Virus record (IMG/VR): IMGVR_UViG_2671180298_000006
Location: 1-8,131 of that record
DNA length: 8,131 bases
Origin: a virus
Taxonomy: Duplodnaviria > Heunggongvirae > Uroviricota > Caudoviricetes
Direction: 5' to 3' (one strand)
Each line of letters opens with the position of its first letter. Position 1 is the first letter of the stretch. The notes under the pieces were generated by a model, which was not told where the DNA came from, ran no database searches, and worked only from the letters and a program-made list of their open reading frames with translations. Shown here piece by piece: positions 1,029-1,202 of this stretch. Both the position numbers and the translations under genes were made by a program.

Positions 1029-1202
1029 ATGGAAGATCAAAAAGCAACCAAGCCACAGGTTAAGTTCGACACAATGAAAGCATTCGCAGGTATGGGTGCT
1101 GCTGTTGAAGTTCTGATGAAGGCTGCTCCTAATGCGTTCACTCACGCTACTGTCTCTGGTAAAGAGCAGCAGGGTAAGCTTCGTCGTCGCAAAGCAGCAT
1201 GA
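1029..1202 (+). CDS. Small hypothetical protein (57 aa) with basic C-terminus
   Basis: Hand-translated ORF below the track's length cut-off: ATG 1029-1031 preceded by GGAG 7 nt upstream; MEDQKATKPQVKFDTMKAFAGMGAAVEVLMKAAPNAFTHATVSGKEQQGKLRRRKAA; TGA at 1200-1202. Codon choice (gct, ggt, gtt, cgt, ctg, aaa, gaa) resembles well-expressed enterobacterial genes. A strong terminator follows about 20 nt downstream. Confidence 0.4.
   Translation: MEDQKATKPQVKFDTMKAFAGMGAAVEVLMKAAPNAFTHATVSGKEQQGKLRRRKAA

Follow-up and report, generated by a model that had tools for sequence, protein, structure and literature searches.

Introduction

Does a small gene that stands directly behind a putative toxin-antitoxin (TA) pair in a prophage belong to that pair, or does it come from elsewhere? 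The question is raised by an open reading frame (ORF) for 57 amino acids at positions 1029-1202 of an 8,131-nucleotide (nt) stretch of DNA from a virus of the class Caudoviricetes (IMG/VR record IMGVR_UViG_2671180298_000006, positions 1 to 8,131). This whole stretch is called the window here. An earlier note on this DNA described the ORF as unlisted and remarked that small proteins of this kind often escape annotation. The ORF is in fact already annotated, as a hypothetical protein in RefSeq (WP_000390072.1), as gp24 of phage mEp460 and as part of PHROG 2741, and the phages SKA5 and Lys8385Vzw also carry annotated copies. Since RefSeq and PHROGs already hold the ORF, the gene call itself adds nothing; what is new is the genomic context.

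In this study, we show that, in nearly all lineages, the small gene belongs as the downstream half to a mobile prophage cassette of two genes. The upstream half encodes a protein that is clearly predicted to have a GNAT fold. We consider it almost certain that the ORF in the window is a real gene and an orphan of this GNAT cassette.

Results

The ORF is a conserved gene for a small protein

The ORF has the ATG start at 1029 and the stop codon at 1200-1202 that the earlier note gave, and its translation is MEDQKATKPQVKFDTMKAFAGMGAAVEVLMKAAPNAFTHATVSGKEQQGKLRRRKAA. ORFs of at least 30 amino acids number 76 in the window, so that the length of this one is not above chance and the case for a real gene comes from the comparison with other genomes. 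The earlier note had named the reading frame in relatives as a check. In 21 distinct homologous coding sequences the frame is open at 54-58 codons; the third codon position is variable in 51 of 58 codons, as compared to 26 for the first and 25 for the second. The median ratio of non-synonymous to synonymous substitution rates (dN/dS) is 0.16 for pairs with dS > 0.2, it is 0.07-0.17 in the most diverged pairs, and the frame stays open even at saturated dS.

The expression signals described in the earlier note were also found. The Shine-Dalgarno (SD) sequence GGAG is well spaced and kept across the homologous loci (Table 1). The fraction of codons that are optimal in Escherichia coli is 0.74 in the ORF and thus above all neighbouring genes tested (0.37-0.60 in eight other genes of the window); it is 0.35 and 0.44 in the two alternative frames of the same stretch. 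The C-terminus KLRRRKAA is highly basic, with a net charge of +5 over the last 14 residues (44-57) and an isoelectric point of 10.2 for the whole protein. The strong intrinsic terminator just downstream is present with its T run; it is one of two called in the first 2.6 kb and the sole one near the ORF. These results support a real, probably well-expressed gene for a small protein, with a terminator that belongs to it.

A search of 5.8 billion proteins gave 48 clusters, nearly all of 57 amino acids and with identities down to 67%, from Escherichia, Salmonella, Enterobacter, Atlantibacter, Franconibacter, Cronobacter and Hafnia. Further homologues are found in Serratia, Edwardsiella, Brenneria and Photorhabdus, and the overall size range is 53-61 amino acids. 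A profile search of 1.84 billion cluster representatives returned just 15 matches, and all real ones have 53-61 amino acids; because the profile matches are so few, the family is small and confined. It is a small-protein family restricted to the Enterobacterales. The profile of PHROG 2741, whose function is given as unknown, is matched over the full length (positions 1-57 of 57, E = 8.4e-36). In the family alignment, both ends vary around a nearly invariant core, FDTxKAFAGMGAAVEVLMKAAPNAF. The small protein matched no family in Pfam or NCBIfam (both at E <= 0.1) or in PADLOC, and nothing in a sequence search of the PDB. An Rfam scan of the whole window found nothing at gathering score; the best match (32.2 bits against a threshold of 55) covers the terminator alone. 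For the small gene, the GNAT gene and the Panacea pair alike, full-text searches with their RefSeq and phage accessions turned up no paper. Neither the small gene nor the Panacea pair is listed by accession in the supplements of the Panacea paper (PMC8832971), and a keyword search of the literature for a system of a GNAT and a small protein yielded nothing specific.

The small gene is paired with a GNAT-fold gene

Elsewhere, the gene directly upstream of the small gene encodes a protein of 172-184 amino acids, spaced 93-197 nt from it. This partner gave no match in Pfam, NCBIfam or PADLOC and just spurious coiled-coil matches in a PDB sequence search; some UniRef entries already name such proteins N-acetyltransferases. 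An AlphaFold model of the partner, made with 33 sequences, has a mean local confidence (pLDDT) of 84 and a predicted template modelling score (pTM) of 0.80. Compared with the PDB by Foldseek, it gave 370 matches at E <= 0.001, and the best 50 of these all belong to the GNAT superfamily, AtaT coming first, followed by RimI, KacT, TacT3 and SpeG. The model makes the GNAT fold of the partner clear, but not its subfamily or its substrate.

The linkage of the two genes is tight. All 85 GNAT loci that were detected by the motif HPL[KN]G[RK]M have the small gene 160-197 nt downstream, and in two Photorhabdus loci without the motif it follows after 93 nt. In a tblastn search over the collected loci, 148 had both genes, 44 the small gene only and none the GNAT gene only, in counts that include many duplicates of the same contigs. 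The small gene was scored intact outright in 147 of the 148 two-gene loci; the remaining copy, from Brenneria, aligns from residue 5 and is an intact ORF of 54 amino acids. Among the remote homologues of the small gene that were looked up, even the two farthest (E = 1e-7 and 3e-4) follow GNAT homologues (hhalign probability 100%, 43% identity).

The pair is found at many genomic positions: between integrase and excisionase in mEp460; between the late antiterminator and the holin in Hafnia, Serratia, Edwardsiella and metagenomic contigs; within the tail module in Photorhabdus; next to a repressor gene in Brenneria; and at other loci adjoining cas3 or between chromosomal genes. The small gene is thus the downstream part of a cassette that occupies accessory ('moron') slots of prophages. 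Its order is GNAT-fold gene, promoter-like motif, leader of about 150 nt, SD sequence, gene for 53-61 amino acids and terminator. In the antiterminator-holin slot of three Hafnia loci (L009, L010, L011), a gene for a RelA/SpoT-domain protein of 319-352 amino acids lies about 200 nt upstream of the pair, so that several accessory genes are stacked in one slot.

The spacer between the GNAT gene and the small gene starts with the motif TAGACG-N16-18-TA[GC][GT]AT (TAGGAT, TAGTAT or TACGAT), which is kept while the intervening sequence drifts. By its resemblance to the consensus and its conservation, the motif is probably a promoter of the sigma-70 type. Conserved inverted repeats, for example CCAATCG-N7-CGATTGG, follow in the leader. 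Motif and leader together suggest that expression of the small gene is regulated.

The small gene is present in 562 of 5,426 complete E. coli genomes (about one in ten), O157:H7 strains included. Upstream of it are either the GNAT gene (358) or the Panacea pair (204), an exact partition of the 562; the Panacea pair was counted at a coverage of at least 80%, and 208 genomes have any match to it. The small gene without the GNAT gene occurs in three contexts. One of them is a diverged lineage of 51-54 amino acids in Cronobacter and a related contig (L015 4001-4165; L185-L187 4001-4156), located between the terminase and portal genes behind unrelated upstream genes. There, a hairpin precedes the gene and the protein has no terminal -AA.

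A Panacea pair has replaced the upstream half in the window

In the window, no GNAT gene lies 93-197 nt upstream of the small gene, and neither of the two upstream genes is GNAT-related. That a diverged GNAT might be hidden in either of them, the Panacea gene or the 139-amino-acid gene, was rejected (hhalign probability below 1%). The TAGACG motif of the enterobacterial GNAT-context loci is missing in the window and in every Panacea-context locus, and no promoter-like site was found on the + strand of window positions 1-2600.

The point of exchange can be located closely. The BLAST match to mEp460 begins at query position 67 of the segment 950-1260, i.e. at window position 1016, and alignment identity with the GNAT-context phages begins at GGAGTTTTCTATG, just before GGAG. 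Phage Lys8385Vzw has the order integrase, Panacea pair, small gene, excisionase; mEp460 has, in the same slot, integrase, GNAT gene, small gene, excisionase. From these two layouts it follows that one accessory cassette replaced most of another and spared the SD sequence, the small gene and the terminator. Through a recombination whose end lies some 10-25 nt before the ATG, the Panacea pair has taken the place of the GNAT gene, the promoter and the leader, and the small gene of the window is therefore an orphan. As a separate observation, the E. coli chromosomal prophages (L001 7694-7798; L192 2750-2854) adjoin a partial tRNA-dihydrouridine synthase fragment near zur and yjbJ. Unlike in the free phages mEp460 and Lys8385Vzw, the examined E. 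coli chromosomes have no integrase between this fragment and the accessory genes.

The earlier note placed the ORF about 40 nt behind the putative TA pair and considered it a possible third member of that operon. The gap between the stop of the upstream gene at 989 and the ATG measures 39 nt. No promoter-like or terminator-like site lies between the toxin gene and the small ORF, and the usual motif and leader are absent, for which reasons the small ORF is most probably co-transcribed with the Panacea pair here. The proposal thus stands as far as a shared transcript is probable. A functional TA component, by contrast, is not supported: the related pair of the Yersinia phages YeP1-3 has no small gene, and the conserved partner elsewhere is the GNAT-fold protein. 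In YeP1-3, the pair (73% DNA identity along a part of it; in YeP1, L103 2501-3465) is followed after 17 nt by the integrase gene. No E. coli copy of the Panacea pair has less than 90% identity, and 206 of 208 reach at least 95%; the loci of Panacea pair and small gene look like one recent arrangement. The start of the toxin gene differs between annotations; in Lys8385Vzw, its ATG overlaps the Panacea stop (570, 139 amino acids), and in RefSeq it lies 33 nt later (603, 128 amino acids).

Predicted shape and C-terminal end of the small protein

The AlphaFold model of the small protein has an overall pLDDT of 66, with one helix and low-confidence tails (54 in the tail), and is too weak for a fold search. 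The protein may consist of one helix rich in small residues, flanked by disordered Lys/Arg tails. The idea of a type I toxin, i.e. a small membrane peptide, was rejected: with a grand average of hydropathy of -0.55, a mean hydrophobicity of 0.35 in the helix and a longest stretch of 13 residues without charge, the protein is hydrophilic and has no run of membrane length, and is therefore not a membrane peptide.

Of 41 distinct family members, 32 have -AA as their last two residues and 4 have -VA, and the residues before these vary. The -AA end also recurs in members with less than 45% identity (...RQEAA, ...RKVAA, ...HRQAA, ...NKKAA). The exceptions are two truncated members, one near-identical member ending in -AV and two representatives of the diverged lineage without a GNAT gene. 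Known C-terminal degrons of ClpXP are ...LAA of ssrA, ...VAA of RseA and RRKKAI of MuA (PMC8138137). Comparable in sequence to such ClpXP substrates, the basic and probably disordered tail of the small protein closes with Ala-Ala, an end that is conserved while the rest drifts. The end RRRKAA of the window copy resembles, in sequence alone, both the ssrA/RseA and the MuA types and may be a degradation signal of the ClpX type.

The 3' end of the gene

The hairpin of the terminator stands 3 nt beyond the stop of the convergent excisionase gene and has A's on its 5' side, and from this arrangement both transcripts probably stop there. In all other homologous loci read, the small gene is likewise followed by a terminator, whose stem sequence differs; the exception is Photorhabdus, where it is unclear. 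The 19-nt spacer between stop codon and terminator, AGCTGGTGCTTTTTG, is more conserved than the synonymous sites and can pair with the last codons. In the RNAalifold consensus of 10 loci, the pairs of the resulting stem-loop are mostly invariant and one is compensatory; since there is almost no covariation, the support for this stem-loop is weak.

Features of the locus and of the remaining window

The features of the locus are given in Table 1.

Table 1. Features in and around the small gene (positions in the window unless a locus is named).
Feature	Position	Strand	Remarks
Panacea-domain antitoxin gene	1-573	+	Pfam SocA_Panacea, E = 1.8e-18; RefSeq: Panacea domain-containing protein
Putative 139-amino-acid toxin gene	570-989	+	Overlaps the antitoxin gene
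Approximate recombination junction	1005..1018	+	Right side matches GNAT-context phages (mEp460 type), left side is the Panacea pair
Shine-Dalgarno sequence GGAG	1019-1022	+	ATG 6 nt downstream; every homologous locus has GGAG/GAGG at this spacing
Coding sequence of the 57-amino-acid protein	1029..1202	+	ATG start, TGA stop at 1200-1202; PHROG 2741; WP_000390072.1
Single predicted helix (residues 15-37), conserved core	1071..1139	+	AlphaFold helices 15-32 and 34-37, pLDDT 73-81; invariant and near-invariant columns here
Basic tail KLRRRKAA with conserved terminal Ala-Ala	1176..1199	+	Candidate C-terminal degradation signal of the ClpX type
Candidate stem-loop across the stop codon (AAAGCAGCA ... 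TGGTGCTTT), which takes in the conserved spacer AGCTGGTGCTTTTTG	1190..1220	+	RNAalifold consensus, 10 loci
Intrinsic terminator, hairpin and T run	1221..1254	.	11-bp stem with 6 G-C pairs at 1221-1246; 19 nt after the stop
PrtN-family excisionase-like gene, convergent	1250..1531	-	Pfam PyocinActivator, E = 3e-23; PHROG 1300 excisionase; mEp460 gp25 annotated as an excisionase
Motif and leader stretch of the GNAT cassette	L002 4818-5013		Equivalents in L004-L014, L100, L154-L184

Two further parts of the window deserve mention. An ORF for 277 amino acids on the - strand (1568-2401, 29% G+C) lies between yfdQ and the excisionase gene, a place held by exonuclease and DUF551 genes in related prophages; it has a full-length match to PHROG 14996 (function unknown) and no Pfam match. 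It looks like another swapped-in accessory gene. In the stretch 5475-8131, a + strand frame is open from about 5801 to the end, and its translation is that of a lambda J-like tail-tip protein; the ORF for 431 amino acids on the - strand (5822-7117) would then be a shadow of J. Just upstream of the J-like frame stands a YmfL/cII-like early gene, and the G+C fraction climbs from 0.43 to 0.63. A large internal deletion of the prophage seems to have fused the early region with the middle part of gene J.

Discussion

What may the cassette do, and what does its stranded half do in the window? The nearest known systems are the TA pairs AtaT-AtaR, TacT-TacA and KacT-KacA, which, like the cassette, are borne on mobile elements and closely couple the gene of a GNAT-fold protein of about 175 amino acids to a small partner gene. 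Also as in these pairs, the enzyme gene of the cassette is never found without its partner. The differences are equally evident. Unlike in GNAT TA pairs, the enzyme gene comes first and the gene in the position of the antitoxin lies downstream, after a gap of 93-197 nt that contains a separate promoter-like motif and a leader. The partner of 53-61 amino acids differs from the antitoxins TacA and AtaR in having neither a DNA-binding domain nor a sequence match to them, and the GNAT protein of the cassette, unlike AtaT, TacT and KacT, has no Pfam match and a predicted fold no closer to these toxins than to RimI or NatD. A second comparison is with phage morons, accessory elements of prophages that form transcription units of their own (PMC3594210). 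Like a moron, the small gene usually has its own promoter-like motif and terminator and moves, together with the GNAT gene, between unrelated phage positions; unlike a moron, the copy in the window has lost the promoter part and depends on its new upstream neighbours.

We tentatively favour, at something short of an even chance, the reading that the small protein binds and restrains the GNAT enzyme as a labile, antitoxin-like neutraliser. The small protein would be heavily translated from strong signals (an optimal codon fraction of 0.74, the conserved SD sequence and, in the GNAT context, its own promoter-like motif point to high expression), and its ...RRRKAA end would make it short-lived. 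As a protein of one helix, it would bind the GNAT enzyme and hold its activity in check, much as an antitoxin does. The orphan copy might act in trans on the GNAT enzymes of related incoming phages, or it might be a recently stranded relic. We favour the neutraliser because the GNAT gene is never alone while the small gene can be, because strong translation signals and a separate promoter-like motif lie downstream of the enzyme gene, because the tail looks like a degradation signal, and because, according to the titles of the PDB entries 6gtq and 7ak9, known GNAT toxins are bound and neutralised by a short part of the antitoxin from its C-terminus. A wider claim would be that the GNAT and the protein of 53-61 amino acids form a previously undescribed toxin-neutraliser or defence pair of phages, in which a ClpX-labile one-helix protein is made from its own strong promoter and orphans guard the lysogen against incoming GNAT phages. 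This is conceivable, and we regard it as speculative and rather doubtful.

Several points weigh against a neutraliser. Physical binding of the GNAT and the small protein is deduced from linkage alone. The order with the enzyme first and the gap with its separate promoter are atypical of type II TA pairs, and the small protein matched no known GNAT antitoxin family, nor any model in Pfam, NCBIfam or PADLOC. Its AlphaFold model is of moderate confidence only (pLDDT 66). The GNAT model is as near to the N-terminal acetyltransferases NatD, RimI and Naa20 as to the tRNA-acetylating toxins, so that toxicity does not follow from the fold. Finally, the helix core of the diverged lineage without a GNAT gene has a pN/pS of 0.21 (16 synonymous versus 12 non-synonymous differences), and this purifying selection argues for some function that needs no adjacent GNAT.

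That selection in the GNAT-less lineage is also part of the case for a function of its own, such as the binding of RNA, DNA or ribosomes through the basic tails, with the GNAT protein a frequent neighbour and not the target. An isoelectric point of 10.2 and a codon bias typical of abundant proteins would fit, and four unrelated upstream genes have been seen (the GNAT gene, the Panacea pair, a gene for a Phage_gp49_66 protein and one for an 85-amino-acid protein without known function). However, the pairing with the GNAT gene is kept down to about 43% GNAT identity in at least five genomic positions, which a chance neighbourhood does not explain, and searches of Pfam, NCBIfam and the PDB found no nucleic-acid-binding fold or motif; on balance, we doubt this explanation. 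We hold it to be unlikely that the small protein is a substrate of the GNAT enzyme (by N-terminal or lysine acetylation) or an activating subunit and the window copy a stranded remnant that has not yet decayed. The small protein is rich in lysine, and its polymorphisms in the Panacea context (5 non-synonymous, 3 synonymous) are compatible with relaxed constraint but too few to judge it. A mere substrate, on the other hand, would scarcely survive intact in 204 E. coli genomes and in a diverged lineage without GNAT, and a labile regulator would account better for the conserved terminal -AA and for the strength of the translation signals.

The window itself would suggest a functional third component of the adjacent Panacea TA operon. 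The gap of 39 nt holds no promoter-like or terminator-like site, the small gene stands behind the E. coli Panacea pair in 204 of 208 genomes, and the locus resembles PanA-PanT pairs with an accessory third gene in that a Panacea gene overlaps a putative toxin gene and the small gene follows. Third genes occur in a minority of Panacea loci, but they are rare and probably without a general role (Kurata et al. 2022, PMC8832971). Unlike a conserved accessory gene, the small gene accompanies the pair in a single near-identical E. coli arrangement, apparently a recent one; the pair of the Yersinia phages does without it, and its deep partner is the GNAT gene, so that it belongs to the other cassette. 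A role in the Panacea system is accordingly improbable. It is harder still to believe that the ORF is untranslated and the conserved element an RNA, either a 3' end or a small RNA of two hairpins. The conservation of the spacer between stop and terminator above that of synonymous sites and the sub-threshold Rfam matches to terminator-bearing RNAs would agree with an RNA; the excess of third-position changes, the low dN/dS and the length and frame kept across genera do not, no Rfam match reached gathering score, and the upstream hairpin is nearly devoid of covariation.

Whatever the small protein does, the pair to which it belongs is widespread: two thirds of the E. coli genomes with the small gene carry the GNAT partner, and the two genes are kept together across the Enterobacterales while changing phage positions. 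The window is an example of an accessory cassette that was displaced by another at the integrase-excisionase slot, while the small gene and its terminator stayed behind. The neighbourhood in the window is therefore misleading, for the small gene behind the Panacea pair is stranded there and comes from another cassette of two genes, itself uncharacterised, of which it is one half.
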